64,000 bases of DNA, taken from Magnetococcales bacterium DC0425bin3. GTDB lineage: Bacteria; Pseudomonadota; Magnetococcia; Magnetococcales; DC0425bin3. The position numbers and the translations under genes were made by a program. Below are positions 12,878 to 26,671 of the stretch, in pieces. Each line of letters begins with the position of its first letter. Within the stretch, counting starts at the first letter, position 1. The stretch is taken from contig PEAP01000006.1 in assembly GCA_002753665.1 (NCBI GenBank), forward strand, positions 5,680-69,679, read 5' to 3'. The notes beneath the pieces are model-generated. The model was not told the origin of the DNA and searched no databases. It was given only the letters and a program-made list of their open reading frames with translations.

Positions 12878-12983
12878 GCCCTTCCCGGCAGGATCCGTTC
12901 CGGACCGGGGTCCTGGGACCCCGGTCCGGCGCACCGGTGGTCGGAGAGGGAGGCATCAGCATCGCATGAGAGGGTTTGATCCC

Positions 12984-14162
12984 ATGTCTTATCGCAAAGC
13001 GTCACTGCCGGCGTTGCCGCTGGCCCTGGCCGGTTGGCTGGTCGTTGCGGCTCCGGCCGCCGCGGCCGGCATTCCCGTGGCCAATCAGCCGACGGTCACC
13101 GTCGAGGCGGGGGCCATCGGCGCCACCACCACCCTGGGTGGGACGGTGGTGCCGTTCCGGGAGGTCTCCTTTTCCGCCCAACTGCCAGGCCGGGTGGAGT
13201 ATCTGGCCGGGGTGGAAGGGGACTGGGTCAAGAAGGGCAACGTGCTGGTGGCCCTGGATGATGATGACCTGCTGGCCAAACGCAACCAGATTCTGGCGGG
13301 CATGGAGACCGCCATGGCCGGCCTGCGCAATGCCCGGGTGCAGTTCGTCCGGCAGCAATACACCGGCCAGCCCCAGGGCATGAGCGGCATGGGCATGCCC
13401 AGCATGATGGACGAGGCGCTCACCCGCCCCATGGAAAACATGTTCAAGGGCGGGTCCAACGATGTCAATCGCCGGGCCCAGCTCTACAACCAGGGGGTGC
13501 AGATCGACCAGGCCCGCTGGCAGTACCAACAAGCCCGGGCCCAGCTCCAGGAATTGGACGCCCATATCCGGGATGCCCGCTCCATCGCGCCCTTCGACGG
13601 GGTGATCGTGCGCAAGACCGTGGAAGTGGGCGACACGGTGCAGCCCGGCATGCCCCTGCTGGCCTTCGCCGATACCGTCCACCTGCAGATCAAGGTGGAT
13701 GTGCCCGCACGCCTGATGCCCGGCATCAAGAAGGGCATGTCCATTCCGGCCAAGCTGGACGTGGGGGATACCCACATCGAGACCAAGGTCGCCCAGGTCT
13801 TCCCCATGGCCGACGCCCAACGCCACACCGTGACCATCAAGCTGGATCTGCCCCAGAACGCCCCCGGCGGACCGGGCATGTACGCGGAAGTGGTCATTCC
13901 CGACATCACCACCCCGGTGGAAAACCTGCCGGTGATTCCCAAGTCGGCGGTGCGCTGGAACGGCAGTCTGCCCGGAGTCTATGTGGTCACCGGCAAGGAC
14001 GAAGCGGAGCTGCGCATGGTTCGTCTGGGTGGGTTCGTCGACGGCAACAGCGTCAGCGTCCTCTCCGGCCTGAAGACCGGGGAGCGGATCCTGGCCGCGC
14101 CCCCCAACAACCAGACCGGCGACAGCAACGATAGCGGCGGCGGCCGTCCCCAGGCCGAGTGA
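12984..14162 (+). CDS. RND efflux periplasmic adaptor (membrane fusion protein, HlyD family)
   Basis: N-terminal signal/anchor (LPALPLALAGWLVVAAPAAAAG). Central alpha-hairpin segment (RRAQLYNQGVQIDQARWQYQQARAQLQELDAHI) flanked by beta-rich regions. Precedes the RND gene. ATG 12966 is an alternative start. Confidence 0.75.
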   Translation: MSYRKASLPALPLALAGWLVVAAPAAAAGIPVANQPTVTVEAGAIGATTTLGGTVVPFREVSFSAQLPGRVEYLAGVEGDWVKKGNVLVALDDDDLLAKRNQILAGMETAMAGLRNARVQFVRQQYTGQPQGMSGMGMPSMMDEALTRPMENMFKGGSNDVNRRAQLYNQGVQIDQARWQYQQARAQLQELDAHIRDARSIAPFDGVIVRKTVEVGDTVQPGMPLLAFADTVHLQIKVDVPARLMPGIKKGMSIPAKLDVGDTHIETKVAQVFPMADAQRHTVTIKLDLPQNAPGGPGMYAEVVIPDITTPVENLPVIPKSAVRWNGSLPGVYVVTGKDEAELRMVRLGGFVDGNSVSVLSGLKTGERILAAPPNNQTGDSNDSGGGRPQAE

Positions 14163-14244: not shown

Positions 14245-17200
14245 ATGTCCGAGCAACCCAAACAACCCGGGACGCCATCCAATCCCGATCTGGCTCAATA
14301 CTCCCCCCACAAGAATCTGGGAGTGGCGGGCGGCATGGCCAAGGCGTTCATCCACTCGCCCTTGTCGCCATTGTTCCTGTTCGCCTGCTTGGCCATGGGG
14401 TTGATGGGCCTGTTGCTGACCCCGCGCCAGGAGGATCCGCAGATCTCGGTGCCCATGGTGGACATTTTCGTCCGCTATCCCGGCGCCGTCAGCCAGCAGG
14501 TGGCCACGCTGGTGACGGATCCCCTGGAACGGATCATGAGCGAAATCCACGGCGTCAAACATGTCTACTCCGCCTCCATGCGCGGCGAGGCCATGGTGAC
14601 CGTGGAGTTCGACGTGGGCGAGAACCTGGAGGACTCCATCGTCAAGCTGCGGGACAAGATCATGTCCAACATGGACAAGGTCCCGCCCGGGGTGGAAACG
14701 CCCCTGATCAAGCCCATGGCGGTGGACGACGTGCCGATGGTGACCCTCACCCTCTGGTCCCACGATCTCAACGACTCGGAACTGCGGGTGCTGTCCCTGG
14801 ACGTGCTGCAACGCCTGAAGGAAGTGGAGAACACCAGCAAGGGTTTCGTGGTGGGTGGCCGGGCCGAGCAGTTGCGGGTGGACGTGATGCCCGAACGGCT
14901 CTCGGGTTTCAAGATCAGCATGGATCAGATCGCCCAGACCATCAAGACCGCCAACAGCGTCCAGGGCGTCGGCGATGTGGAGTCCGGCGACGTGGGCCGC
15001 AAGGTCTATACCGGCAAATGGCTGCAGAACGCCCAGGATCTGCGCCGGCTGGTGTTGAGTACCCACCAGGGCGTGCCGGTCTACCTGGGGGACGTGGCCA
15101 AGGTGGAATCCGCCCCCGAGGAAACCAGCCAGATGGTCGCCTATTACAGTGGCCCTGCCTATCGGGACAACACCCCCCAGGCCAACGGCGCCCCGGCGGT
15201 GACCATCGCCATCGCCAAGAAGATGGGCAGCAACGGCGTCTCGGTGGCCAACGATCTGCTGGACAAGGTGGAGGAACTCAAGGGCCGTCTGATTCCCAGC
15301 AACGTCTATGTGGCGGTCACCCGCAACTATGGCGAGACCGCCAACGAAAAGGTCAACGAACTGCTCTTCAAGCTGTGCATCGCTACCCTGGCGGTGACCG
15401 TGCTGGTGTGGTTCTTCCTGGGACTGCGGCCGGCGGTGGTCACCCTGATCGTGATTCCCGTGGTGATCCTGATGACGGTGTTCGCCGCCTGGATCATGGG
15501 GTACACCATCGACCGGGTGAGCCTGTTCGCCCTGATCTTTTCCATCGGCATCCTGGTGGACGACGCCATCGTGGTGGTGGAAAACATCTACCGCCGCTGG
15601 CTGCTGGAGGACAACTGCTGCCACATCATCTCCGTGGACGCGGTGCGGGAGGTTGGCAACCCCACCATCCTGGCCACCTTCACGGTCATCGCCGCCCTGC
15701 TGCCCATGGGCTTCGTGCGCGGCATGATGGGTCCCTACATGGAACCGATTCCCGCCCTGGGATCGGTGGCCATGCTGTTCTCCCTGTTCGCCGCCTTCAT
15801 CTTCACCCCCTGGCTCACCCAGTTGATCAAGCCCAGCCTGCGCTCCCTGCATATCCATTCGGAAAAGGAGCATGCCCAGGCGGAGCGCATGGAGCGGTTC
15901 TACCGCTGGATCATTCCCCAGTTGATCCATTCCAAGGCCAAGGGGTTCGGTTTTCTGTTCGGCATGGTCTTCATCTTCTTCCTCTGCATGGTGATGTTCT
16001 ATACCCAGAGCGTGGCGGTGAAGATCATGCCCCTGGACAACAAGCCCGAGTTCAACGTGGTGGTCAACATGTCCGAGGGCACTGCCATGCCCAAGACCGC
16101 CAATCTGGTCCAGCAGCTGACCAACGAACTCCGCAACAAGATTCCGGAGATCATCGCCCTCCAGACCTATGTGGCCACCGCCTCCCCGTTCAACTTCAAC
16201 GGCATGGTGCGTCACTACTATCTGCGGCGCGAGCCCTGGCAGGGTGACATCCAGGTGCAGCTGGTCCACAAGAGCGAGCGGGAGCGGACCAGCCATGAAC
16301 TGGCCATTCTGGCCCGCCATATTCTCACCCCCATCGCCCGACAGGCCGGCGCCCGGATCGAGGTGGTGGAAATGCCCCCGGGACCGCCGGTGCTGCAGTC
16401 GGTGGTGGCCGAGGTGACCGGCCCCACGGCCCAGATCCGCCATCAGGTGGCCCAACAGATGACCCGGTTCTTCGAGGATGCCCACAACATCGTCGATGAG
16501 GACAACTACATCCAGGAACCGTTCGAGGTCTGGCGGTTCGAGGTGGACACCGAAAAAGCCGTGCGGCGGGGCGTTTCGGTGGATGCCATCAACCGCAACC
16601 TGGGGATGGCCATGGGCGGGGCGCGTCTGGGCGACATCAAGCGCGGTCGGGTGCTGGAGCCGACCTACATCGTCATCCAGGTGCCCCTCAACGTGCGCGC
16701 CCAGATCACCAGCCTGGCCGAACTGCCCGTCATGTCCACCACCGGGACCACCATCCCCCTGGGCGAGCTGGGGCGGTTTGTCCGGGAACCCCAGGATCCC
16801 ATCATCTTCCACAAGGATCTGCGCCCGGTGGAATTCGTCACCGGCGAGGTGGAAGGGGTTCTGGACGCTCCCATCTATGGCATGATGGAAGTGGAAAAGA
16901 TGCTGGAGAACTACACCACCCCGGATGGGGTGAAGATGTCCGGCTACTACATGGGGCCGCCGGAAACCACCACCCGCTCCGGCTTCGAGTGGACCGGAGA
17001 ATGGACCGTCACCTACGAAACCTTCCGGGACATGGGCATGGCCTTCGGAGTGGCCCTGATCCTCATCTACATGTTGGTGGTGTGGGAATTCGGCAACTTC
17101 GTCCTGCCGGCCATCATCATGGCCCCCATTCCCCTGACCCTGATGGGCATCATCCCGGGCCATTGGCTGCTGGACGCCAAGTTCACCGCCACTTCCATGA

Positions 17201-18090
17201 TCGGCTTCATCGCCCTGGCCGGGATCATCGTGCGCAATTCCATTCTGCTGGTGGATTTTTCCCAGCAGGAGGTCCTCAAGGGCGTGCCCCTGATGGACGC
17301 GGTGATCATGTCCTGCAAGGCCCGGACCCGGCCCATTCTCATCACCGCCCTGGCCCTGGTGGCCGGGTCGTCGGTGATCCTCTCCGACTTCATCTTCATG
17401 GGCATGGCCATCAGCCTGCTGTTCGGCGTGCTGATCTCCACCCTGCTGACTCTGCTTGTGATTCCCCTGGGCTGCATCAGCGCCAAGAACGCCTTCCGCT
17501 ATCCAACGCGGCAGGAGGCCGAGGAGATGGGCTATCCGGTGGCGCCGGGTGTCCTGGCCGCTCCCGCCATGCCGAGGGACAACGCCTGCAGCGACAGTGC
17601 CTGCGCCGCCCCGGAGATCGAAGAAGCCTCGCCGCCCGCGCCAGCGGCACAGTCGGCCGAGCTCCCGCCGGCACAGTCGGTCGAGCCCTCGCCGGCACAG
17701 TCGGTCGAATCCGTGACCCAGCCGGAACCACCTGCCGGTTCCGCCCTGCCGGAAGCGCCACAGACAGCGCCACCCCAGGCAGAGGTGCGGCAGCCGGACT
17801 CCGATCCCGGTCAGGCCACGCCTCCCGAGCCACCGGCGGCTCCCGCAACCGCCTTGGAATTGCTGGAGGCGGTGCATCAGGCCATTGAGCCTGCCCCGGT
17901 TCTGGAAACCGCCCAACCTGATTCCAGGACAGAGACCGCCTCCCTGGATCAGGACGAGGAAACCCGGGATGACCTCCCGGAACAGATCACCTCCGAGGCC
18001 CCGGCTGGAGGGGACAAAGGCAGCGGCAAAGCCGTCGCTCCCCGCCGGGGCATCCGTCTCAAACCCCCGTCAGGCAAGGGGCCGTCATGA
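14245..18090 (+). CDS. RND (AcrB/HAE-type) efflux transporter with ~200-aa disordered P/A/E/Q-rich C-terminal tail
   Basis: About 1040-aa core with the two-fold 1+5 TM / large periplasmic loop RND architecture. After ...LLVIPLGCISAKNAF (about nt 17500) comes a low-complexity acidic tail ending in a basic patch (KGSGKAVAPRRGIRLKPPSGKGPS). Confidence 0.9.
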   Translation: MSEQPKQPGTPSNPDLAQYSPHKNLGVAGGMAKAFIHSPLSPLFLFACLAMGLMGLLLTPRQEDPQISVPMVDIFVRYPGAVSQQVATLVTDPLERIMSEIHGVKHVYSASMRGEAMVTVEFDVGENLEDSIVKLRDKIMSNMDKVPPGVETPLIKPMAVDDVPMVTLTLWSHDLNDSELRVLSLDVLQRLKEVENTSKGFVVGGRAEQLRVDVMPERLSGFKISMDQIAQTIKTANSVQGVGDVESGDVGRKVYTGKWLQNAQDLRRLVLSTHQGVPVYLGDVAKVESAPEETSQMVAYYSGPAYRDNTPQANGAPAVTIAIAKKMGSNGVSVANDLLDKVEELKGRLIPSNVYVAVTRNYGETANEKVNELLFKLCIATLAVTVLVWFFLGLRPAVVTLIVIPVVILMTVFAAWIMGYTIDRVSLFALIFSIGILVDDAIVVVENIYRRWLLEDNCCHIISVDAVREVGNPTILATFTVIAALLPMGFVRGMMGPYMEPIPALGSVAMLFSLFAAFIFTPWLTQLIKPSLRSLHIHSEKEHAQAERMERFYRWIIPQLIHSKAKGFGFLFGMVFIFFLCMVMFYTQSVAVKIMPLDNKPEFNVVVNMSEGTAMPKTANLVQQLTNELRNKIPEIIALQTYVATASPFNFNGMVRHYYLRREPWQGDIQVQLVHKSERERTSHELAILARHILTPIARQAGARIEVVEMPPGPPVLQSVVAEVTGPTAQIRHQVAQQMTRFFEDAHNIVDEDNYIQEPFEVWRFEVDTEKAVRRGVSVDAINRNLGMAMGGARLGDIKRGRVLEPTYIVIQVPLNVRAQITSLAELPVMSTTGTTIPLGELGRFVREPQDPIIFHKDLRPVEFVTGEVEGVLDAPIYGMMEVEKMLENYTTPDGVKMSGYYMGPPETTTRSGFEWTGEWTVTYETFRDMGMAFGVALILIYMLVVWEFGNFVLPAIIMAPIPLTLMGIIPGHWLLDAKFTATSMIGFIALAGIIVRNSILLVDFSQQEVLKGVPLMDAVIMSCKARTRPILITALALVAGSSVILSDFIFMGMAISLLFGVLISTLLTLLVIPLGCISAKNAFRYPTRQEAEEMGYPVAPGVLAAPAMPRDNACSDSACAAPEIEEASPPAPAAQSAELPPAQSVEPSPAQSVESVTQPEPPAGSALPEAPQTAPPQAEVRQPDSDPGQATPPEPPAAPATALELLEAVHQAIEPAPVLETAQPDSRTETASLDQDEETRDDLPEQITSEAPAGGDKGSGKAVAPRRGIRLKPPSGKGPS
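17647..17718 (+). repeat. 3 x 24-bp in-frame tandem repeat in the RND tail
   Basis: GCACAGTCGGCCGAGCTCCCGCCG / GCACAGTCGGTCGAGCCCTCGCCG / GCACAGTCGGTCGAATCCGTGACC, encoding AQSAELPP-AQSVEPSP-AQSVESVT. Confidence 0.85.
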
Positions 18091-19150: not shown

Positions 19151-19312
19151 CGGCCCGGCTGTTATCGTGCCAGCCGCGCGCCAGTCGCGCTTCGGGCCTT
19201 CGAGAAACGCGGGGGAGGTATATAAACCTCCCCCCCCCAGGAAGGTTGACGCAGGACTGTTCTGGAACGCCCAGCGCATTCCAGGCAGGATTCGGGATTG
19301 GTGGAAGCCAAG

Positions 19313-19993
19313 ATGGCATTGTCCAGTTGCATGCACCTTCATTGTGCCCTGTTCCTCGGGATGCTCCTGACCGGAAACGCGGTGCATGCCGCTGTCATGG
19401 AGCCCGCTGCCGGCCCCGGGCCGGTCCTGCCCCTGCTGCTTGCCCAGAATGGTGGGACCAACGATCATCTGTGGAACTGGTATGGCGACAATTATTCCCG
19501 TCAGCCAGCGCCAGTCACCCCGCAGGAACAGGCCCTTCCCTCCTATGGGACTCCGTTCCGTCCCAGTGGCAAAATCCCTGCCGGCGATCAGACCCGACCC
19601 TGGGGTGAGGTGCCGCCCGACTATCAACCCAATCCCTATTACGGAGACCAGCGGCGGCCCTCGGACAGCGGAGCAGACAACCGCAACCGTTTCGACTCCC
19701 GTCCGCGTCCCGACCCGCGGTATTCCGAGGAACGCTTCCGGTCCATGAACCCGCCCCCGGGCCAGTACTCCGACTTCGACCCCCCCGCTCCACCGTCCTC
19801 CGGCTCCGAACGGGGCACCGACGATTATTTTCGCCGACGCCAGGTTGAGGAACAACCCTTGCATGCCCCGCCGCCACCCGGCAATGGCTATCCCGCCACA
19901 GTGCCCTGGGGATACCGCCCTCCCGACAGTTATGACTCGTGGTCGTCCGAGGGTCAGCCCTTCTGGGGCACCCCCTCTTATTGGTCCAGATAG
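19313..19993 (+). CDS. secreted P/R/D/Y-rich low-complexity protein (226 aa)
   Basis: Signal peptide MALSSCMHLHCALFLGMLLTGNAVHA. Mature part is rich in P, R, D, Y and W (e.g. DYQPNPYYGDQRRPSDSG..., ...GYRPPDSYDSWSSEGQPFWGTPSYWSR). TTG 19298 is an alternative start. Confidence 0.6.
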   Translation: MALSSCMHLHCALFLGMLLTGNAVHAAVMEPAAGPGPVLPLLLAQNGGTNDHLWNWYGDNYSRQPAPVTPQEQALPSYGTPFRPSGKIPAGDQTRPWGEVPPDYQPNPYYGDQRRPSDSGADNRNRFDSRPRPDPRYSEERFRSMNPPPGQYSDFDPPAPPSSGSERGTDDYFRRRQVEEQPLHAPPPPGNGYPATVPWGYRPPDSYDSWSSEGQPFWGTPSYWSR

Positions 19994-20001
19994 GAAGGTT
20001 C

Positions 20002-20661
20002 ATGGCTGCATCCGCGGGATTCAATCTCGAACGGGCATGGAAGCTTGGCGCCGCCACCCTGATCCTTCTGGCCGGAATCCCGGTCAGCCTGCCCGTTCCG
20101 GCCCGGGGAGACCAACAGCAGCCGGCCTTTTCCGCCCGGGTGGTCCGCAGCCATCCCTCGGATCGGGAGAAGAACTCCCAGGGCCACATGTATGTGGGAC
20201 CCCTGGGCATCCGCACCGAATCCACCGTGGGCGGTGAGGCCATTCATGTCATCTTTCAACGCCAACCGCCGAAGGCTCTGGTCCTGTTTCCGTCCCGCAA
20301 GGAGTACATGGAACAACCCGGAGCCGACAGCACCCCGCCGCCGCTCCCCGACCATCCGGACAGCCCCTGCCGCACCCATGATTCCTACCGCTGCCTCAAA
20401 AAGGGCCTGACCACCGTGGGCGGCCGTGACACCGAACATTGGGTGGTGACGGTCATCCCGCCCGGCGAGAAACCCCGGGATTCCCAGATGTGGATCGACC
20501 GTCGTCTGGGCATTGCCATTCGGGAAGCCTATCCGGACGGCTCTCTCGTGGAGCTGACCGACATCCGGGAGGCTCCCCAGGACCGGCAACTCTTCACCCT
20601 GCCGGAGGGGTATCGCCTGGTCACCCTGCCGGAGTCCGGCGCTCCTCCCGCGCCACCCTGA
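20002..20661 (+). CDS. hypothetical exported globular protein (possibly LolA-like/DUF4412-like fold)
   Basis: AGGAAGG RBS before ATG 20002. Signal-like N-terminus ...LGAATLILLAGIPVSLPVPARG. The beta-rich, non-repetitive mature part is the only ordinary-composition exported protein in this block. The fold assignment is a guess. Confidence 0.5.
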   Translation: MAASAGFNLERAWKLGAATLILLAGIPVSLPVPARGDQQQPAFSARVVRSHPSDREKNSQGHMYVGPLGIRTESTVGGEAIHVIFQRQPPKALVLFPSRKEYMEQPGADSTPPPLPDHPDSPCRTHDSYRCLKKGLTTVGGRDTEHWVVTVIPPGEKPRDSQMWIDRRLGIAIREAYPDGSLVELTDIREAPQDRQLFTLPEGYRLVTLPESGAPPAPP

Positions 20662-20744: not shown

Positions 20745-21154
20745 ATGACGACAACAATCGCCCGCCCCTGGCCCTCAGTTTGTAACATACCGGTCCGCCA
20801 GTGAGGGGAATTTTACATTAAACATCTTGTTATAGCGTGCCTTCTGCTCCAAAATGGCGTTTAACGTCCTCCCGTGAATACCTGCGGCAGCCACGTTGGT
20901 TTCGCGGTCCATCGGTGTCCGCGGTTGACCCCTGCGACCCGGACCCCAGACAGGGAGTTGTCGCGAGGGGTATCGAAGCACCATGGGTCTCCTTGTGCGG
21001 AATCCATCAGGTGTGATAAGAGGGCTTGAACCTGGAAAAAATGGATGGCTCCAGGGCAGGAGGGCAAACCATGGATGCCGCCAAGTCACATCGGCTCGGC
21101 ACGGTGGCGGAGGGGATCTTCCCAGCCACGAGGGTTTCCTGGCAGCAGCCACGC

Positions 21155-21763
21155 ATGAACGTGCGACGTTTCGGACACATCGTCTCCCTCGGCACCTTGG
21201 TCACAATGACCGGTTGGTCTTGCCATGCGACGGCGGGGGAGCCTTGGCAACAAACCATGGAGGCCGCCCAGCGGGCCGCTGCGAAACAGGGCTTGAGCGG
21301 CGATTCCCAGATGGGCCAACGCTTCGGACGTTTCATGAAGTCCTTCATGGACGAAATGGAATCCACCGACCCCGGAGTCGGCCACCCCCCCGGGAATCCG
21401 GAGGTGCCTCCAGGAATGCCGGACAATCGACCCCGTACCGAGGCCCGCCGGGCCCCCGAAGGGATATCCGGCCCCGCACGGATCCCGCAACCGCTTCCGC
21501 CCGGGCCGGGATACTGGGAGCCCACCCCCTGGGACAGCTCCCCCGGCCTTTGGGGTCCTGGAGGATGGAGTGCCTACGATTCCCCCGGCCGTCCCTATGC
21601 CGGAGCGGAAGGATATGGGTGGGGCGGTTCAGCCTACCGGGTTCCAAACCAGGGCTGGCCCGCCTGGAGCCCGTCGGGGTCCTGGGGCAATTATCGGGAT
21701 CCGCTGTTCGACAGCCCCGCGGGGCTGGGAACGGGTTGGGTTCCCCAGGGGTGGGATTGGTGA
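21155..21763 (+). CDS. secreted W/P/G-rich low-complexity protein (202 aa)
   Basis: Signal-like MNVRRFGHIVSLGTLVTMTGWSCHATA. C-terminal half is GYWEPTPWDSSPGLWGPGGWSAYDSPGRPYAGAEGYGWGGSAYRVPNQGWPAWSPSGSWGNY...GWVPQGWDW. The start is uncertain (ORF opens at 21026). Confidence 0.55.
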   Translation: MNVRRFGHIVSLGTLVTMTGWSCHATAGEPWQQTMEAAQRAAAKQGLSGDSQMGQRFGRFMKSFMDEMESTDPGVGHPPGNPEVPPGMPDNRPRTEARRAPEGISGPARIPQPLPPGPGYWEPTPWDSSPGLWGPGGWSAYDSPGRPYAGAEGYGWGGSAYRVPNQGWPAWSPSGSWGNYRDPLFDSPAGLGTGWVPQGWDW

Positions 21764-21908: not shown

Positions 21909-22172
21909 ATGAAAAAGACCGCGCGCTTGTTGGCCATTGCCGCCCTTCTGGGCACTGCCATGACCCTCGCCGCCCCCGCGGATGCCTGGTGGGGACCCGG
22001 CTGGGGCAATGGCAACGGTTGGGGCAATGGCACCTTCAGCATGAACATGGGTGGCTGGGGCAATGGCTATGGCAATGGCTACGGCTATCCCGGCTACGGC
22101 GGCTGGGGCGGACCCGGCTATGGCGGCTGGGGCGGACCCGGCTACGGCGGTTGGGGCGGACCCTGGTGGTGA
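21909..22172 (+). CDS. small secreted G/W/Y-repeat protein 1 (87 aa), sulfur-globule-envelope-protein-like composition
   Basis: GAGGAG RBS. Sec signal MKKTARLLAIAALLGTAMTLAAPADA. Mature WWGPGWGNGNGWGNG...GYGGWGGPGYGGWGGPGYGGWGGPWW. Confidence 0.8.
   Translation: MKKTARLLAIAALLGTAMTLAAPADAWWGPGWGNGNGWGNGTFSMNMGGWGNGYGNGYGYPGYGGWGGPGYGGWGGPGYGGWGGPWW
22092..22163 (+). repeat. 3 x 24-bp coding tandem repeat (GYGGWGGP unit)
   Basis: GGCTA(C/T)GGCGG(C/T)TGGGGCGGACCC x3. The same unit recurs in the two downstream paralogs. Confidence 0.9.
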
Positions 22173-22236
22173 CGGTTGACCACCGCAATTCGTGCCATCC
22201 TCCTTTTTATCTGCAATGACGACGGAGATACAGAAA

Positions 22237-22506
22237 ATGAAAAAGTCCCTCGGTGTTCTCGCCATCGCGGCCCTGCTGGGTGGAGCCGCCATCCTCGCGA
22301 CCAATGACGCCTCCGCCTGGTGGGGACCCGGTTGGGGCAACGGCAACGGTTGGGGCAACGGCAACCTGAGCTTCAGCATGGGTGGCTGGGGCAACGGCTG
22401 GGGCAATGGCTACGGCTATCCCGGCTACGGCGGTTGGGGCGGACCCGGCTACGGCGGCTGGGGCGGACCCGGCTACGGCGGCTGGGGTGGTCCCTGGGGT
22501 TGGTAG
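22237..22506 (+). CDS. small secreted G/W/Y-repeat protein 2 (89 aa)
   Basis: GGAGA RBS. Signal MKKSLGVLAIAALLGGAAILATNDASA. Mature region is nearly identical in layout to paralog 1. Confidence 0.8.
   Translation: MKKSLGVLAIAALLGGAAILATNDASAWWGPGWGNGNGWGNGNLSFSMGGWGNGWGNGYGYPGYGGWGGPGYGGWGGPGYGGWGGPWGW
22423..22494 (+). repeat. 3 x 24-bp coding tandem repeat (GYGGWGGP unit)
   Basis: Same unit as 22092-22163. Confidence 0.9.
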
Positions 22507-22516
22507 TCAAACAGGC

Positions 22517-22538
22517 AGGGGGGGCTCACGCCCCCCTT
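22517..22538 (+). terminator. short G/C hairpin after paralog 2
   Basis: GGGGGG-CTCACG-CCCCCC followed by TT only. Weak U-tract. Confidence 0.3.
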
Positions 22539-22642
22539 GACTGCAATGCCAACTGGCATGGTTGGGGGAATTGTCTCCCACCCGCGTGCCGCACCCACTT
22601 CCGGCAACGGCTGCGTGCGGCAACTGCGCAAAGGGTTTCAAC

Positions 22643-23020
22643 ATGAAAAAGACGCTCGGCATGCTGGCCATCGCCACCCTTTTGGGTGGTGCAGCCATGG
22701 TGACCTCGAATGAAGCTTCGGCCTGGTGGGGCGGTGGTCCCGGCTACTGGGGCGGACCCGGCTACGGCGGTTGGGGCGGACCCGGCTACGGCGGTTGGGG
22801 TGGCGGGCCTGGCTACGGCGGTTGGGGCGGACCCGGCTACGGCGGTTGGGGTGGCGGGCCTGGCTATTGGGGCGGCGGTGGTGGCCCCTATGGCTATGGC
22901 GGCGGACCCTATGGCTATGGCGGCGGGCCTGGCTACTGGGGCGGTGGTGGACCCAACGGCGCTCCTCCAGCGACGGCTCCCACCGGGGAGAAAGAAACCA
23001 AAACCGACTCCGGTAATTGA
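22643..23020 (+). CDS. small secreted G/W/Y-repeat protein 3 (125 aa) with charged C-terminal tail
   Basis: Signal MKKTLGMLAIATLLGGAAMVTSNEASA. Mature WWGGGPGYWGGPGYGGWGGPGYGGWGGGPGYGGWGG...GGGPYGYGGGPYGYGGGPGYWGGGG, then NGAPPATAPTGEKETKTDSGN. Confidence 0.8.
   Translation: MKKTLGMLAIATLLGGAAMVTSNEASAWWGGGPGYWGGPGYGGWGGPGYGGWGGGPGYGGWGGPGYGGWGGGPGYWGGGGGPYGYGGGPYGYGGGPGYWGGGGPNGAPPATAPTGEKETKTDSGN
22742..22940 (+). repeat. array of 18/24/27-bp coding repeats (GYWGGP / GYGGWGGP / GYGGWGGGP / GPYGYGG units)
   Basis: Direct reading of 22742-22861 shows alternating 24- and 27-bp units. More degenerate units follow. Confidence 0.8.
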
Positions 23021-23040: not shown

Positions 23041-23070
23041 GGGGGGCGGTTGCGGCCGCCTCCCGTTTTG
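23041..23070 (+). terminator. rho-independent terminator after the G/W/Y gene triplet
   Basis: GGGGGGCGG / CCGCCTCCC stem (one G-U pair), loop TTGCGG, then GTTTTG. Confidence 0.65.
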
Positions 23071-23235: not shown

Positions 23236-23904
23236 ATGATTACCCTGATCGGCAACCTGAAAGGCGGTTGCGGCAAAAGCACCGTGACCTTCAATCTGGC
23301 GGTTTGGCTGGCCAAGCGGAAGCGGCAGGTGGTTACCTTCGATCTGGATCCCCAGGCCACCCTGAGCGATGTGGTGGATGTGCGCCGGGAAGAGGGTGTG
23401 ACTCCCGCCATCACCGTGTTTCGCCCGGAAAGCGACCCCGGCAAGGTCTTCAAGGAACATTCCGCGGGCGAGGTTCTGGTGGATGTCGGCGCTTCCAACC
23501 TCTGGGCCATGCGGCAGGCCATCGCCATGGCCGACCGGGTGTTGATTCCGGTGCCGCCCAGTCAGGCGGATGTCTGGTCCACCCAGCGGTTCCTGAACAT
23601 CGTCGAGGAAACCGTCGCCGGCAAGAAACGCCCCGAGACCCTGGTCTTCGTCAACCGTGCCGATACCCACCCGGGATTGACGGAATCCGACGAAACCGAA
23701 CAGGCCCTGGCCGCCCTGTCCGGGGTGGCGATCCTGGACGCCCGTATTTCCCAAAGAACCATCTACCGCCGTTCCTTCAGCGAGGGCCGGGCTGTCTTCG
23801 AACTGTCCCCCTCCAGCAAGGCCGCGGAAGAGTTCATCAATCTGGCCAAGGCCCTGTATCCGGACCTGGCCCAGCCCGCCAAAAGCGGCAACAAGAAAAA
23901 GTGA
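23236..23904 (+). CDS. orphan ParA/MinD-family P-loop ATPase
   Basis: Deviant Walker A GNLKGGCGKST, then FDLDPQ and VLVDVG motifs. 222 aa with a short basic C-terminal tail (AKSGNKKK). No parB, parS or min genes nearby. Confidence 0.85.
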   Translation: MITLIGNLKGGCGKSTVTFNLAVWLAKRKRQVVTFDLDPQATLSDVVDVRREEGVTPAITVFRPESDPGKVFKEHSAGEVLVDVGASNLWAMRQAIAMADRVLIPVPPSQADVWSTQRFLNIVEETVAGKKRPETLVFVNRADTHPGLTESDETEQALAALSGVAILDARISQRTIYRRSFSEGRAVFELSPSSKAAEEFINLAKALYPDLAQPAKSGNKKK

Positions 23905-23919
23905 GGGAGAATACGGCCC

Positions 23920-24612
23920 ATGACCGATCGACCGGTTCAACATCCCGGCGCGGATGCCGACGGTGGCGGAAACCCGTCCTCCCCCATGCCCCAGCGCGGC
24001 GTCAACATCATCCCGCCCGTCGGCACCCACAAGGAGTGCGGCAACTGCTCGGCCATGGTGCTGGACCAGTTCGCCAAGAGTTTCGACAAAAGCGCCCGCC
24101 GCTGGGAACTGGTGGTCTACCCGTCCCTGTTCGCCTTCATCATCCTGGCCATGTACGGATTTTTCCTGATCTACAGCCTCACCCAGGACATCCGGATCAT
24201 GTCCCACTCCATCGACCCGCAGATGGGGCGCAACATGGGCTCGTTGTCTTCCAACATCGGCAGTTTGTCCAACAATATCGAGTTGATGTCCAATTATCTC
24301 GAATATATCAGCGACAACATGGAAACCATGTCGGTGGACATGCAGACCATGGCCGAGAACATCGATACCATGACCGACAGCGTTTCCGGCATGAGCGGCA
24401 ATGTCAAGCAGATGGCCGGCACCATGACCGAAATGTCCGGGCGGGTCAGTGAAATGGCCGTCAAGCTTGATACCCTGGGACCCATGACCGCCAACGTGGC
24501 CATCATGTCCCAGGCCATGCGCGTCATCACCGGGTCCATGAACCGCATGGGATACGACATGAACAACGCGGCCCGGCCCATGAGCTTCATCAACCGGTTC
24601 ATGCCCTGGTAG
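23920..24612 (+). CDS. bitopic membrane protein with periplasmic Met-rich 18-heptad coiled coil ('methionine zipper')
   Basis: N-terminal ~65 aa carry an ECGNC (CxxC) motif and a K/R cluster. One TM follows (VVYPSLFAFIILAMYGFFLIYSL). From residue 102 there are 18 uninterrupted 7-residue repeats beginning M (L/I/V in a few). Ends ...RFMPW. Confidence 0.7.
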   Translation: MTDRPVQHPGADADGGGNPSSPMPQRGVNIIPPVGTHKECGNCSAMVLDQFAKSFDKSARRWELVVYPSLFAFIILAMYGFFLIYSLTQDIRIMSHSIDPQMGRNMGSLSSNIGSLSNNIELMSNYLEYISDNMETMSVDMQTMAENIDTMTDSVSGMSGNVKQMAGTMTEMSGRVSEMAVKLDTLGPMTANVAIMSQAMRVITGSMNRMGYDMNNAARPMSFINRFMPW

Positions 24613-24675: not shown

Positions 24676-25392
24676 ATGTCCGCGACACGCAAAACCAGTT
24701 CCATCCTCTCCGCCGCCGTCCTGACCCTGGCCATGACCTTTTCCGCCGCCGCCATGGCCGAGGACAAGGCCGCCACCGTCCCGGTCACGCCGCCCACCAG
24801 CCCCCAGGATCTGCAAGAACGCATCCAGGACCGGGTCGGCAATTACTGGCAGAGCATCCAGAGCAGCCACGATGCCTGGCAGCGCCAGCATACCCTCGGA
24901 CAGACCGCCACCGAGCGGGACCGGGAAACCGGTCAGTCGGCCCGGGAAATGGCCGAACAGACCCGCATGCTGGATTGGCAGAACCAGCAGCAGGCCTGGA
25001 CCAACGCCGCCCAGCAGCTCCAGAACACCCAGCAGCGCCAGCAGGAGAACAATCTGAAACTCCAGGAAGCCCTGATGGCCTACCGCCACGAACAGGAGCG
25101 CATCAACCTGGAACATCGCAAGGCGATGGTGAGCAACACCACCGCCTACCAGCAGGGCAGCCTCAACAACGCCGTCATGCGCCGTCAGAATAATCTGATG
25201 ACCAGCACCTCCGCGGTCAACAACGATCTGTGGGCCAGCCGGCAGGCCATGATGAACCACATGGCCCGTCAGCGCGCCTGGCTGCAGCAGCGCACCGGCG
25301 CTCCCGTGAACGAAGCCATTCTGCCTCCCGTCGCTCCCGGCAGTGAACCCGCGGCCCCTCCGGCGGCGGAAGCAGCCAAGCCGGCGCAATAA
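24676..25392 (+). CDS. secreted Q/N-rich helical protein (238 aa)
   Basis: GGGAGA RBS. Signal MSATRKTSSILSAAVLTLAMTFSAAAMA. Mature part is Q/N/R/E-rich and helix-prone (WQNQQQAWTNAAQQLQNTQQRQQENNLKLQEAL...), with a P/A tail. Confidence 0.65.
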   Translation: MSATRKTSSILSAAVLTLAMTFSAAAMAEDKAATVPVTPPTSPQDLQERIQDRVGNYWQSIQSSHDAWQRQHTLGQTATERDRETGQSAREMAEQTRMLDWQNQQQAWTNAAQQLQNTQQRQQENNLKLQEALMAYRHEQERINLEHRKAMVSNTTAYQQGSLNNAVMRRQNNLMTSTSAVNNDLWASRQAMMNHMARQRAWLQQRTGAPVNEAILPPVAPGSEPAAPPAAEAAKPAQ

Positions 25393-25393
25393 C

Positions 25394-25462
25394 TTTGATG
25401 GATGGGGGAGGCCTCCCTCCACCCTCCACCGATGGAAGTCGCGCAGCGACTTCCATCGGTAA
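25394..25462 (+). repeat. two-hairpin ~70-bp repeat, full copy C (closest to consensus)
   Basis: TTTGATGGATGGGGGAGGCCTCCCTCCACCCTCCACCGATGGAAGTCGC-GCA-GCGACTTCCATCGGTAA, starting 2 nt after the stop of the Q-rich gene. Confidence 0.9.
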
Positions 25463-25473
25463 ATGATTCGAAC

Positions 25474-25515
25474 TTCTGATGGATGGGGGAGGCCTCCCTC
25501 CACCTTCCATCGGTG
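25474..25515 (+). repeat. two-hairpin repeat, copy D with hairpin 2 collapsed
   Basis: TTCTGATGGATGGGGGAGGCCTCCCTCCACC-TTCCATCGGTGA. The left arm and loop of hairpin 2 are deleted. Confidence 0.75.
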
Positions 25516-25539
25516 AGCGAGTCGTCCAGATCGAATCCA

Positions 25540-25569
25540 GGGCGGATTGCCATGCAATCCGCCCTTTTT
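25540..25569 (+). terminator. strong rho-independent terminator closing the + strand block
   Basis: 11-bp perfect stem GGGCGGATTGC / GCAATCCGCCC, loop CAT, then TTTTT. Confidence 0.8.
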
Positions 25570-25621: not shown

Positions 25622-26566
25622 TCAATGGGCGGGTACGAAGCCTTGCGCGACCAGGATGGCCTGGGCCTCGGGATCCAGGGTCCAGTCCAGGAAAGTCTTC
25701 AGGTCGCCCTGGGGTTGGCCCAGGGTGTAGAGATACAGGGGATGGATCAAGGGATAGGAACGGTCCCGGATCCGCTCCGGGGTGGGGGTGATACAGGCCT
25801 CTCCGGATTGTTCCGCCAGGCACACCGCCCGCACCCCGGAAGTGAGGGAGGACAGGGAAACATAACCGATGGCGCAAGGATCCTCCGCCACCCGGTTCAC
25901 CAGGCCCGGATCATCCCGGGTGAAAGTCAGGCGTCGGGACATGTCTGCGAGATGCGCGCCGAACAGCCGGGCGCGGAAGATGCCATAAATCCCCGCCTTG
26001 GTGGTGCGGCTCAGCGGATGGATCTGTTGCGCCATGCAGCCGGGCAGGGGATTGTCCAGGGCGGTCCAGCGGGCGATGCGCCGGTGTTTTCGGTAGATGC
26101 CGGCCAACTGATCCAGATCCAGGGCCTGGATGCCATTGTCCCGGTGAACGATCACCGCCACCGCATCCCATCCCACCACCTGACCCTGGGGCTTGGCAAA
26201 GCCGCTGGCCACCGCCAATTGGGCTTCCCACTCCTGCATGGTGCGGGAGGTGGCGGCGACATGGCCATGGCCGTTGATCAGGGCCGCAATCCCCTTGACC
26301 GAGCCCCCCCCCTGAATATGCAGGCCGATGTCGGGATGACGTTCGTGGAAGGGCTTGACCCAGGCCTCCAACACCGGCTTCAGGGTTTCGGACCCCCGGA
26401 TCCACAGGGCGGTGTCCTCCTCCCCCAGGGCCCATGCCGACCCACAGCCGCTCATCCAGGTCAGGATCGCCACCAGCCATGCCTTACCGTGGAAGTCGCG
26501 TTGCGACTTCCATCGGTGGAGGGTGGCGGGAGGCTTCCCCCATCCATCAAAGTTACAGGTTCCCAT
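25622..26566 (-). CDS. PstS-family (phosphate-binding-protein-like) periplasmic lipoprotein, orphan
   Basis: PBP-fold sequence (...IRGSETLKPVLEAWVKPFHERHPDIGLHIQGGGSVKGIAALINGHGHVAATSR...). Lipobox-like LTWMSGC. No pstCAB nearby. The only usable in-frame starts (ATG 26566 or TTG 26578) lie upstream of repeat copy E, which is read through in frame. Confidence 0.65.
   Translation of the reverse strand: MGTCNFDGWGKPPATLHRWKSQRDFHGKAWLVAILTWMSGCGSAWALGEEDTALWIRGSETLKPVLEAWVKPFHERHPDIGLHIQGGGSVKGIAALINGHGHVAATSRTMQEWEAQLAVASGFAKPQGQVVGWDAVAVIVHRDNGIQALDLDQLAGIYRKHRRIARWTALDNPLPGCMAQQIHPLSRTTKAGIYGIFRARLFGAHLADMSRRLTFTRDDPGLVNRVAEDPCAIGYVSLSSLTSGVRAVCLAEQSGEACITPTPERIRDRSYPLIHPLYLYTLGQPQGDLKTFLDWTLDPEAQAILVAQGFVPAH
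26484..26553 (-). repeat. two-hairpin ~70-bp repeat, full copy E, inside the 5' end of the PstS-like ORF
   Basis: Plus strand reads TTACCGTGGAAGTCGC-GTT-GCGACTTCCATCGGTGGAGGGTGGCGGGAGGCTTCCCCCATCCATCAAAGT. Confidence 0.85.
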
Positions 26567-26671
26567 TCGGTCGCTCAATCTCACTCTCCTCCGCTGCCAC
26601 CAATCTGACCGATTTGGCAACCACAGTTCAAGAGGTGTTCATGCACCCTGGTCAGGGGATGTTCGCCGCCC

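Follow-up and report, generated by a model that had tools for sequence, protein, structure and literature searches.

What does a bacterium make of a membrane protein whose distal part is a gapless series of heptads, most of them led by methionine, and with which genes does such a protein travel? The question is raised by an open reading frame on the forward strand of a 64,000-nucleotide stretch of Magnetococcales bacterium DC0425bin3 (contig PEAP01000006.1), called the window here.

The gene and its methionine-rich rod

The product translated from the open reading frame has 230 residues and is identical to the protein quoted in the first-pass annotation, which had placed the heptads at 24223-24609. 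These coordinates are right, as residue 102 begins at base 24223 and W230 finishes at 24609. A GGGAG Shine-Dalgarno-like sequence lies about 10 nt 5' of the start, which falls 15 nt past the stop of the preceding ParA-like gene. The GC3 value (0.87) is similar to that of the neighboring genes. The share of methionine is 11.3% in the whole protein and rises to 16% in the rod, compared with 1.4-5% in the neighboring proteins. It is vanishingly improbable that the frame is not a gene and that the heptads are a by-product of an opposite-strand gene or of a DNA repeat. Long opposite-strand frames do overlap it, as is usual in this GC-rich window, but hundreds of homologs share conserved ends, motifs and in-frame whole-heptad indels, a ribosome binding site and tight operon packing are present, and the repeat exists at the level of the protein, not of the DNA. 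A non-gene origin is already refuted by the conservation data. The features of the protein and of its surroundings are shown in Table 1.

Table 1. Features of the window in the order of their position.
Feature	Position	Strand	Basis and remarks
RND membrane-fusion (periplasmic adaptor) protein, MFP	12966..14162	+	Pfam HlyD_D23; NCBIfam RND_mfp 170 bits, above cutoff
Long RND permease, 1281 aa, with disordered ~200-aa cytoplasmic tail	14245..18090	+	Pfam ACR_tran 467 bits
RRGIRLK motif at end of RND tail	18043..18063	+	Conserved across loci with ParA-like gene
Two secreted low-complexity Pro/Gly/Tyr/Trp-rich proteins	18087-19112 and 19310-19993	+	Translations; similar proteins after pump in gammaproteobacterial loci
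Secreted DUF4412-like protein, two invariant Cys	20002..20661	+	Weak Pfam DUF4412 match
Secreted Gly/Trp/Tyr-rich sulfur-globule-protein-like (SGP-like) gene 1	21909..22172	+	Signal peptide, GWGGPGYGG repeats; weak Pfam SGP match (E 0.0075); counterparts in related loci
SGP-like gene 2	22237..22506	+	Translation; counterparts in related loci
SGP-like gene 3	22643..23020	+	Translation; counterparts in related loci; followed by terminator-like hairpin 23041-23064
ParA-like deviant Walker-A ATPase (KGGCGKST), directly 5' of target	23236..23904	+	Pfam CbiA/AAA_31/MipZ; NCBIfam ParA_partition 138 bits, below 180 cutoff
Target gene, 230-aa bitopic 'methionine-zipper' protein	23920..24612 (including stop codon)	+	ORF list and translation
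Variable N-terminal tail, aa 1-43, predicted cytoplasmic, ending E39-C40-G-N-C43	23920..24048	+	Low pLDDT, no secondary structure, variable in alignment
Conserved juxtamembrane helix, aa 44-63, VLDQFAKSFDKSARRWE	24049..24108	+	F51, F55, A59, R61, W62, E63 invariant in 57 sequences
Single transmembrane helix, aa 64-88, LVVYPSLFAFIILAMYGFFLIYSLT	24109..24183	+	Y67, P68, F73, A77, G80, F81, L83, I84, L87 invariant; pLDDT 96
Met-rich heptad rod, aa 102-213, predicted periplasmic coiled coil	24223..24558	+	Periodicity, family conservation, continuous predicted helix
Conserved L-x-P hinge, L186-G-P188, between variable-length rod and constant distal segment	24475..24483	+	P188 nearly invariant
C-terminal tip motif RPMSFINRFMPW, aa 219-230 (RPMSFxNxFMPW)	24574..24609	+	R219, P220, N225, F227, P229 invariant or nearly so; not predicted helical
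Secreted Gln-rich helical protein, 3' of target	24676..25392	+	Translation

Residues 102-230 parse without a gap into 18 full heptads and a terminal MPW. The unbroken heptads were correctly described in the first-pass annotation, but to call all eighteen Met-initiated was too strong, since L, I or V opens five of the units. Of the 18 full heptads, 13 have Met at position 1, or 14 of 19 if MPW is counted; the earlier figure of 14 of 18 was off by one. A register with 14 Met was found in none of 100,000 shuffles. At 102.9 degrees, equivalent to 3.5 residues per turn, the hydrophobic moment reaches 0.97, versus 0.46 at 100 degrees; none of 20,000 shuffles attained this value. When the rod is aligned to a designed coiled coil, Met takes position d, I/M/V position a, small residues (S/A/T/G) position e and N/M/S position g. 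Charged residues account for only 16% of the rod, and His and Cys are almost absent from it.

AlphaFold2, run on a single chain with a 57-sequence alignment, predicted one continuous helix for residues 43-214, with a pLDDT of 84-96 per 10-residue block over residues 51-180. The model is a single long helix with a pTM of 0.29, so matches from a fold search would carry no meaning. The last ~16 residues (with R219-P220 and P229) are not predicted to be helical, and the heptad parse there is thus a register coincidence or a motif, not a coiled coil. The a/d coiled-coil pattern proposed earlier, with a mostly Met core position, holds for the heptads of the rod and not for this end. Judged from the unbroken heptad a/d hydrophobicity, which is conserved among the relatives, and from the model, the predicted rod is a true coiled coil and not a surface amphipathic helix. 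A surface-lying helix is unlikely because the periodicity is 3.5, not 3.6-3.67; a phasin- or perilipin-like helix was considered and set aside on this ground.

The single hydrophobic segment (about aa 64-88) is preceded by KSFDKSARRW and is the most conserved part of the protein. The K/R excess that points to an N-in topology sits in the juxtamembrane helix (aa 44-63). It is a feature of the whole family, with a mean of 3.7 K+R before the transmembrane helix and 1.4 after it, the N-terminal side being the richer one in 127 of 130 members. The bitopic, N-in/C-out topology assigned at first reading is supported by this bias, and the rod probably projects into the periplasm.

The homolog family and its likeness to known proteins

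The homolog search recommended in the first-pass annotation, to see whether a family exists and which genes travel with it, recovered a large family and a conserved gene string. The remark that the architecture was not that of a described family has to be revised: the family is large, uncharacterized and weakly similar to DUF948/COG4768 (YoxC). It comprises 466 homologs at E<=1e-3, with relatives in more than 584 species, and representative clusters at 50% identity number 139 at E<=1e-30 and 544 at E<=1e-10. The named best matches (the best 80 of >584 species) belong to Magnetococcales, Beggiatoa-like genera, Thiomargarita, Thioploca, Marithrix, Ectothiorhodospiraceae and Chromatiales; as the names cover these 80 only, a restriction to sulfur storers is not proven. 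Neither Allochromatium nor another cultured purple sulfur bacterium was among the named matches of a second search with a Chromatiales member as query.

Among the 57 aligned sequences 19 positions are invariant, 15 of them within the juxtamembrane and transmembrane helix (aa 51-87). Heptad position 1 is M, L, I or V in 93% and Met in 55% (128 members), and Met averages 16.5% of the rod across the family versus 5% for Leu. The Met enrichment ranges from 11% to 23%, with L/I/V in the place of Met in some members; thioether chemistry may therefore not be essential. Before the hinge, the rod varies in length solely by whole heptads (5-13), and in 105 of 115 members the distance of the hinge from the anchor Met (35-91 residues) is divisible by 7. 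A register not conserved in homologs had been named beforehand as a finding that would speak against the heptad claim; the register is conserved, and the claim stands. The cytoplasmic CxxC that had also been pointed out is present in the target (C40-x-x-C43) but is no family feature. All Magnetococcales members carry ECxxC(S/F) and the gammaproteobacterial members do not; Beggiatoa-type members retain one Cys (MECGAAIS) and most other gammaproteobacterial members none.

The best Pfam match of the target is DUF948 (PF06103; 27.7 bits, E about 3e-6, residues 72-165), below the gathering cutoff of 37.2; the other Pfam and NCBIfam matches are sub-threshold coiled-coil noise. The architecture agrees with DUF948 in that one transmembrane helix (about aa 64-88) is followed by a continuous helix to aa 214 with a periodicity of 3.5 residues. 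Like DUF948/COG4768 ('YoxC, contains an MCP-like domain'), under which many homologs were already labeled, the protein is small, with one N-terminal transmembrane helix and a Ser/Asn/Thr-rich heptad coiled coil. In contrast to DUF948, the family adds a cytoplasmic tail of 40-65 aa, the invariant motif FAKSFxxSARRWEL-VVYPSLFAF, the L-x-P hinge, the tip RPMSFMNxFMPW and 11-23% Met, and it occurs in Magnetococcales and gammaproteobacterial sulfur oxidizers. The literature on DUF948 gives no function. The label 'methyl-accepting chemotaxis protein' on homologs is unsupported: MCPsignal (PF00015) scored 11.7 bits in the target versus a cutoff of 34.6 (E 0.23), and neither a HAMP nor a ligand-binding domain was found in the protein, which is only 230 aa long.

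The best matches to solved structures in a profile search of PDB sequences were sc-apCC-6-SLLA (8qae, E 7e-12), an MCP four-helix bundle (2ch7, E 4e-9) and sc-CC-5-24 (8qkd, E 1e-7). Judged by sequence, these matches reflect a shared heptad composition, not homology, and serve for the register only. Designed alpha-helical barrels are alike in their 'type 2' hpphhph heptad with hydrophobic g/a/d and small e, the Met of the target aligning with the d-Leu of the design. Leucine zippers and Braun's lipoprotein Lpp, which the family profile matches weakly (E 0.0015), share the strict a/d heptad, in which a single aliphatic residue prevails at d while position a is beta-branched or Met, as well as a membrane-anchored rod, predicted for the target to be periplasmic, with whole-heptad length changes. 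The target differs from them in having Met for Leu at d, small uncharged residues instead of Glu/Lys at e/g, and an inner-membrane transmembrane anchor instead of an outer-membrane lipid. AcrZ with AcrB and YajC with SecDF are comparable for their single, highly conserved transmembrane helix, the target being encoded in an RND permease string; AcrZ has 49 aa and no periplasmic domain, whereas the target has a predicted periplasmic rod of 130 aa.

The target has no match to Pfam SGP (PF17228) at E<=1 and is not known from any globule proteome. With SgpA/B/C (PF17228) and SgpD of Allochromatium vinosum it shares a predicted periplasmic location, and it is encoded beside SGP-family genes. It has no sequence similarity to the Sgp proteins, which carry a cleavable Sec signal and Gly/Tyr/Trp or Pro repeats, whereas the target has a retained transmembrane anchor and Met heptads. 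SgpD, an experimentally confirmed globule protein, is helical and possibly a coiled coil, and its gene adjoins that of a hydrophobe/amphiphile (HAE-type) exporter (PMC10386293).

Gene neighborhood and related loci

The RND pump of the window scored 417 bits as a multidrug type versus 247 bits as CusA/CzcA (TIGR00914, cutoff 701), both below the respective cutoffs. The DUF4412-like protein matched nothing when its profile was compared with PDB sequences. In the window itself, the SGP-like proteins score below the Pfam SGP cutoff; three SGP-like neighbors in related loci pass the gathering score of 26.7 bits (37.3, 46 and 50.8 bits). The ParA-like gene and the target are probably co-transcribed, to judge from their spacing. 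The gene of the Gln-rich protein probably shares the same transcript; no terminator-like site lies between the target and 25539, and a strong terminator-like hairpin is located at 25539-25565. The Gln-rich protein is conserved only in the closest relative (L004) and hence is not part of the core module; it was rejected as a core partner or SgpD analogue.

In Magnetococcales and Gammaproteobacteria the genes share one order: MFP, long RND permease, secreted low-complexity/SGP proteins, DUF4412-like protein, ParA-like protein, in some cases a TPR or DUF302 protein, the target and often a dynamin-like GTPase. The target is the last conserved gene of this module in sulfur-storing members of both groups. 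A long RND gene of the same orientation precedes the target in 19 Magnetococcales loci and, among the gammaproteobacterial loci, in L003, L045, L060 and L084-L089; in L036, RND and MFP genes are upstream on the opposite strand. In 17 Magnetococcales loci, as in the gammaproteobacterial L060, L077, L084, L086 and L089, a DUF4412-like homolog is found at the equivalent place in the gene order. SGP-like secreted G/W/Y-rich genes are found within 2 kb of the target in 19 Magnetococcales loci and the window. In Gammaproteobacteria they lie divergently upstream (L003, L039, L045) or in the same gene string (L077, L084, L086, L088, L089). As the Magnetococcales loci share ancestry, their synteny counts for about one observation. 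Many members are encoded apart from the module: Beggiatoaceae copies lie between dapA and a CBS-domain gene, that of L090 among nir/heme-d1 genes and that of L091 among housekeeping genes.

The target directly follows a ParA-like gene in 31 of 80 loci having enough upstream flank, 29 of these 31 being Magnetococcales loci; in Gammaproteobacteria a ParA-like gene is directly upstream in L060, L077, L084-L087 and L092. This gene order would suit a ParA partner or adaptor of the ParB or McdB kind. The RRGIRLK motif ends the RND tail in all 16 loci with a ParA-like gene and in none of the three without, and the pattern holds in Gammaproteobacteria (present in L084, L085 and L087, absent from L089). 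The perfect co-occurrence with the ParA-like gene is thus that of a motif on the pump, not on the target. The CxxC was considered as a contact for the ParA-like protein and discarded: its co-variation (a 29/46/3/2 table; P-loop Cys) tracks lineage and is rivaled by the pump's tail motif. A dynamin-like (Dynamin_N) gene lies downstream of the target in L084, L086 and L092. Both the ParA-like and the dynamin-like partner are cytoplasmic and would suit a cytoplasmic rod better, were the topology inference wrong. In the literature, nothing was found on Mmc1_3257 of Magnetococcus marinus MC-1 or joining ParA-like proteins with sulfur globules, and for sulfur globules and dynamin only a general discussion in Thiomargarita.

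A candidate stalk of the sulfur-globule machinery

The reading preferred here, at about even odds (probability roughly 0.5), is that the target serves a sulfur-globule machine as a stalk or tether, oligomeric and located in the periplasm, and acts with the module as follows. It would be a type-II (N-in, C-out) inner-membrane protein made of a short variable cytoplasmic tail, an almost invariant juxtamembrane and transmembrane helix, the rod, and a hinge with the tip. The rod would extend ~16-19 nm into the periplasm as a coiled coil in which d is mostly Met, a is I, M or V, and e and g are small and uncharged; the role of the protein would be structural. The invariant transmembrane helix may dock the protein to the module's membrane complex, the RND pump being the obvious candidate. 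The distal tip and the thioether-rich core may touch the globules in the periplasm, either at their aromatic-rich SGP coat or at their hydrophobic sulfur, and the ParA-like ATPase would probably position the membrane complex via the RRGIRLK tail of the pump. The suggestion, made at first reading, that the core could bind hydrophobic sulfur species fits a neighborhood holding sulfur-globule-protein genes. What the analysis demonstrates is how the sequence is built and conserved, in which taxa the best matches occur and which genes are linked; the topology, the oligomeric state, the physical partners and any contact with sulfur are inferred from these.

The pump also lends itself to an explanation that needs no globule. 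The target may be an accessory subunit or periplasmic stalk of the unusual MFP-RND transporter, or else an envelope coiled coil of the general DUF948 type, without direct contact to globules; the SGP neighbors would then be co-regulated or be cargo of the pump, and Met a flexible, oxidation-buffering core residue. This is unlikely. In its favor, the pump is the most widely recurring neighbor, the transmembrane helix is most conserved, as expected for a helix with an intramembrane partner like that of AcrZ on AcrB, DUF948 is matched below threshold, and the periplasmic stalk of MmpL4, a coiled coil, is a weak match of the family profile (E 0.008). It leaves unexplained, however, why the named members are sulfur storers and why in two bacterial classes the co-directional string includes SGP genes, and many members are encoded away from any RND gene. 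In the Cu(I)/Ag(I) ligand role raised in the first-pass annotation, stacked Met layers of an oligomeric coiled coil (MxxxM, MxxM, comparable to the Met triads of Ctr1 or the helices of SilE/PcoE) would retain soft metal ions or relay them, possibly to the adjacent RND protein as CusF does with CusCBA. The Met content of the rod, its i, i+3, i+4, i+7 spacing along one helix face, the predicted periplasmic location and the MFP-RND pair in the same cluster would suit such a binder, as would an LTXXQ/Metal_resist protein near one gammaproteobacterial locus and a CzcB-type domain match in one related MFP. The likeness to CusF, the CusB N-terminus, PcoE/SilE, CopC and the Ctr1 Mets motifs extends to Met-rich, extracytoplasmic segments with MxxM/MxxxM spacing and to a gene near MFP-RND, but not to homology or to His/Trp co-ligands. 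A copper or silver role is nevertheless very unlikely and finds no support in the context. TIGR00914 is neither the best nor an above-cutoff match of the pump, which scores higher as multidrug/HAE, and the module is without cop, cus, pco or sil genes, a multicopper oxidase or a P-type ATPase. The rod is nearly free of His and Cys, and its Met residues form the buried d/a core of a strict, regular heptad in which L/I/V replace them across the family. No metal-binding family (CusF, PcoE/SilE or CopC type) appeared among the Pfam and NCBIfam matches at E<=1, and the conserved neighbors are sulfur-globule proteins.

An inverted, N-out and C-in orientation is likewise hardly probable. The Met-rich rod would then lie in the cytoplasm, where the ParA-like ATPase and the dynamin-like GTPase could use it as cargo adaptor or scaffold, for instance at invaginations of the membrane around globules. 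The two most conserved flanking genes do encode cytoplasmic nucleotide hydrolases, many members are labeled as methyl-accepting chemotaxis proteins or YoxC, and the profile matches a cytoplasmic MCP bundle. Against this stand the K+R bias of nearly all members, the conserved ARRW motif abutting the N-terminal end of the transmembrane helix, the basic motif on the pump tail as an alternative ParA partner, and an MCP signaling domain that was not detected at its cutoff. The stalk or tether reading can be carried further, and in this extended form it is decidedly doubtful. The protein might assemble into a higher-order bundle or an alpha-helical barrel, its core lined with thioethers, that would couple a ParA-positioned MFP-RND pump to SGP-coated globules and, with the DUF4412-like protein and, in Gammaproteobacteria, the dynamin-like GTPase, might form an unrecognized machine that deposits, tethers, spaces or mobilizes sulfur, the Met core offering hydrophobic sulfur chains, or the aromatic-rich coat, a track or a surface to dock on.

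To our knowledge, apart from four Sgp coat proteins described in a single model organism, no factor for the assembly or tethering of sulfur globules or for transport is known. The analysis corrects the common annotation of homologs as methyl-accepting chemotaxis proteins. For protein design, the family offers a natural coiled coil with Met in place of Leu at d over 12 to 18 heptads. For the biology of sulfur-storing bacteria, it yields a concrete, testable set of candidates: besides the Met-zipper stalk, these are the unusual RND pump, whose tail motif is linked to ParA, the ParA-like ATPase, the dynamin-like GTPase and a secreted protein about the size of LolA. The set is conserved in two bacterial classes, with cultured strains such as Magnetococcus marinus MC-1 (Mmc1_3257 and upstream genes) among its carriers.

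Heptad structure and conservation of the target

The protein quoted in the first-pass annotation is the product of a plus-strand ORF of the window, as determined from the ORF list and its translation. The gap-free run of eighteen full heptads was recovered; calling all of them Met-initiated is a slight overstatement because five units begin with L, I or V, Met occupying position 1 in 13 of the 18 full units (14 of 19 counting the terminal MPW). None of 100,000 shuffles of the heptad segment placed 14 Met in one register. The hydrophobic moment has a sharp peak of 0.97 at 102.9 degrees (3.5 residues per turn) versus 0.46 at 100 degrees, which none of 20,000 shuffles matched. Met content is 11.3%, versus 1.4-5% in neighbouring proteins; with a genome GC3 of ~0.87, the enrichment therefore opposes base composition.

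The protein has one hydrophobic helix, with KSFDKSARRW just before it. AlphaFold2, run on a 57-sequence alignment, predicted a single unbroken helix (residues 43-214; pLDDT 84-96 per 10-residue block over residues 51-180). Charged residues make up only 16% of the rod. Alignment with a designed coiled coil places Met at d, I/M/V at a, a small residue at e and N/M/S at g. The target can be likened to a leucine zipper in which Met occupies d and perhaps, as a periplasmic spacer, to Lpp. Judged from the sequence, a periodicity of exactly 3.5 speaks for a supercoiled oligomer and against a flat amphipathic helix such as that of phasins or perilipins. Designed alpha-helical barrels, whose heptad type resembles that of the target, gave the best PDB match (E 7e-12), which may serve as a lead on oligomeric state, not as evidence.

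The target is a genuine gene with a protein family, and the probability that its ORF is not a gene is negligible. A search of 5.8 billion proteins returned 466 relatives at E<=1e-3, and, when 1.84 billion representatives were searched with a profile, 139 clusters reached E<=1e-30 and 544 reached E<=1e-10. With one genome scanned per species, relatives turned up in >584 species. Among the best 80 of these, Magnetococcales, the order of the window's host, show 56-69% identity and include the cultured Magnetococcus marinus MC-1 (Mmc1_3257), strain MO-1 and Magnetofaba australis; Ectothiorhodospiraceae, Chromatiales, Thioploca, Thiomargarita, Marithrix, Halobeggiatoa, Parabeggiatoa, Albibeggiatoa and other Thiotrichales show 31-45%. 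The taxa named among these 80 are, as far as is known, sulfur-oxidising bacteria with stores of elemental sulfur.

The 57-sequence alignment contains 19 invariant columns. Fifteen lie in residues 51-87, the juxtamembrane helix and TM (consensus FAKSFxxSARRWEL-VVYPSLFAFIILAxYGFFLIYSLTxD); the others are D90, D99 and M102 of a DPxMxxNM stretch, and P220. At the C-terminus, RPMSFMNxFMPW hardly varies. With 128 distinct members set in register by the anchor Met, position 1 holds M (55%), L (15%), I (14%) or V (9%), position 2 S/A/T/G, position 4 M/N/S and position 5 M/I/V; on average, Met accounts for 16.5% of rod residues (range 11-23%) and Leu for just 5%. In 105 of 115 members a conserved L-x-P hinge is separated from the anchor Met by a multiple of seven residues, the spacings being 35, 42, 56, 63, 70, 77, 84 or 91. 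Accordingly, the length of the proximal rod varies in whole heptads only; the distal ~25 residues and the tip do not vary across the family.

The nearest known family is DUF948/COG4768 (YoxC), which shares the TM-plus-heptad architecture; the target scores 27.7 bits, under the 37.2 cutoff, and is thus not filed there. Its architecture is a variant of the membrane-anchored coiled coil of DUF948 type. DUF948 papers in the literature searched give no function. The label 'methyl-accepting chemotaxis protein' on homologs is unsupported (MCPsignal 11.7 versus a cutoff of 34.6).

Gene neighbourhood in the window and in related loci

The gene order is summarized below. No terminator-like hairpin was found between the ParA-like gene and the target in a hairpin search of the window.

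Features of the window and of related loci (L numbers) carrying a target homolog
Feature	Locus	Coordinates	Strand	Remark
Membrane-fusion protein (MFP)	window	12966-14162		first in order
RND permease	window	14245-18090		1281 aa; after MFP
RRGIRLK motif	window	18043-18063		end of RND tail
Two secreted Pro/Gly/Tyr/Trp-rich proteins	window	18087-19112, 19310-19993		after RND
Secreted DUF4412-like protein	window	20002-20661		~220 aa; after Pro/Gly/Tyr/Trp-rich pair
Another secreted low-complexity protein	window	21026-21763		between DUF4412-like gene and Gly-rich trio
Three secreted Gly/Trp/Tyr-rich proteins	window	21909-23020		in tandem; upstream of ParA-like gene
Terminator-like hairpin	window	23041-23064		after third Gly-rich gene
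ParA-like ATPase	window	23236-23904		target begins 15 nt after
Target gene	window	23920-24612	+	230 aa
C40-x-x-C43	window	24037-24048		target N-terminus
Heptad segment	window	24223-24609	+	residue 102 to W230; 18 full heptads + MPW, gap-free
Secreted Gln-rich protein	window			last, after target
Palindromic element	window	25390-25455, 25477-25515, 26490-26555		GC-rich, ~40-66 nt
Terminator-like hairpin	window	25539-25565		after Gln-rich gene
Phosphate-binding-protein-like gene	window	25622-26620	-	flanked by palindromic copies
Membrane-anchored DUF302 protein	L085	6216-6797		directly precedes target
Membrane-anchored DUF302 protein	L088	6308-6880		directly precedes target
Membrane-anchored DUF302 protein	L092	1670-2251		directly precedes target
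Dynamin-family GTPase	L084	7562-9061		490-550 aa in all four
Dynamin-family GTPase	L086	7609-9156
Dynamin-family GTPase	L092	2993-4474
Dynamin-family GTPase	L077	2249-3904

Six secreted low-complexity, Pro/Gly/Tyr/Trp-rich proteins form a run in the window. Three of them, encoded in tandem and built of GWGGPGYGG repeats, resemble sulfur-globule proteins (SGPs), score under the Pfam SGP cutoff, and may be divergent Magnetococcales coat proteins. The DUF4412-like protein, which matches DUF4412 weakly and has two invariant Cys, is conserved in the module of both bacterial classes; a profile search of solved structures found no relative. The palindromic element, with 92% complementarity between its two 66-nt arms, is reminiscent of intergenic repeats of the REP or MITE kind.

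Six-frame ORFs of 84 related loci were clustered for comparison. In Magnetococcales, a ParA-like gene lies immediately upstream of the target in 29 of those loci whose flank is long enough; an RND gene occurs in 19 loci and a DUF4412-like gene in 17. This synteny is not independent evidence. The gammaproteobacterial locus L060 has the order MFP, RND, DUF4412-like, ParA-like, target. Secreted Gly-plus-aromatic-rich ORFs, picked by a crude filter, lie <=2 kb upstream in 19 Magnetococcales loci and, in gammaproteobacterial loci, divergently upstream in L003, L039 and L045 and downstream in L077.

Nine more gammaproteobacterial contigs (L084-L092) were examined for module genes. An RND gene lies upstream of the target in the same direction in L084-L089, preceded by an MFP gene in L085, L087 and L089, where the locus extends far enough. 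ParA-like genes occur in L084-L087 and L092, DUF4412-like genes in L084, L086 and L089, and SGP-type genes in L084, L086, L088 and L089. The slot immediately before the target is held by a TPR protein (L084, L086) or a DUF302 protein (L085, L088, L092; in L088 the DUF302 gene is itself preceded closely by that of a TPR-like protein). A Dynamin_N GTPase (Pfam match in three) immediately follows the target in L084, L086 and L092, with a P-loop GTPase ORF at the equivalent place in L077; this gene is absent at that position in the window and other Magnetococcales. Three Gly-rich proteins pass the curated Pfam SGP cutoff of 26.7 bits (L077, 37.3; L084, 46; L086, 50.8); the MC-1 copy (21.3) and the window's best (17.5) fall under it. 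Exceptions to the module are the Beggiatoaceae copies, flanked by dapA and a CBS-domain gene, L090, surrounded by nir/heme-d1 genes with DsrC close by, and L091, in a housekeeping-gene setting.

The RND protein ends in a disordered, cytoplasmic tail of ~200 aa with a conserved basic motif, RRGIRLK, an observation spanning the window, L001, L006-L032, L060, L084, L085 and L087. The motif is present in 16/16 loci with the ParA-like ATPase and absent in 3/3 without; L084, L085 and L087 have both, L089 neither. It has the look of a peptide that interacts with ParA, in which case the ATPase would position the pump. In Allochromatium vinosum (A. vinosum), the gene of the globule-bound SgpD adjoins a hydrophobe/amphiphile exporter and a two-component regulator (2023 study, PMC10386293). 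Similarly, a LuxR-type response regulator follows the dynamin-like gene in L084 and L086.

Predicted topology and proposed function

The 15 residues before the TM contain on average 3.7 K+R versus 1.4 after it, and in 127 of 130 members the N side has more of them. An N-in topology with a periplasmic rod, as the first-pass annotation had proposed, is thus a well-supported prediction. The opposite orientation, in which a cytoplasmic rod would serve the ParA-like and dynamin-like proteins, is contradicted by this bias and is improbable.

All Magnetococcales members carry the CxxC; one Cys is found in Beggiatoa-type members (MECGAAIS) and none in the majority of the remaining gammaproteobacterial members. 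The lineage distribution of the CxxC matches that of the P-loop Cys of the ParA-like protein (KGGCGKS in 29/30 Magnetococcales loci, KGGSGKS in 7/7 gammaproteobacterial loci checked). The pattern could reflect a common metal or redox site, or simply shared ancestry.

The preferred reading, with a probability of about 0.5, is that the target is a periplasmic coiled-coil stalk or tether within a sulfur-globule module. By sequence it is not itself an SGP; SGP coat proteins contain 16-18% Trp+Tyr. The invariant TM helix would anchor the stalk, probably packing on a membrane partner, for which the RND pump is the most plausible candidate, and the conserved distal tip and Met-rich core would be turned toward the SGP coat or sulfur itself. 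Length variation in whole heptads fits a spacer in which continuity outweighs exact length. A more specific version, a Met-lined bundle or barrel coupling a ParA-positioned RND transporter to periplasmic globules, is quite unlikely.

That the target is an accessory of the pump, or an envelope protein of general DUF948 type, with no globule contact, is unlikely. Binding of Cu(I)/Ag(I), raised in the first-pass annotation beside a sulfur role, is improbable: the pump type is unfavourable (a divergent RND scoring 417 bits with the multidrug model versus 247 with CusA/CzcA, both far under cutoffs), His is lacking, the Met residues occupy core positions and are substitutable, and copper genes are absent.

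As far as the searched literature shows, the protein family and its conserved module are undescribed. The target offers an entry point into sulfur-globule cell biology.
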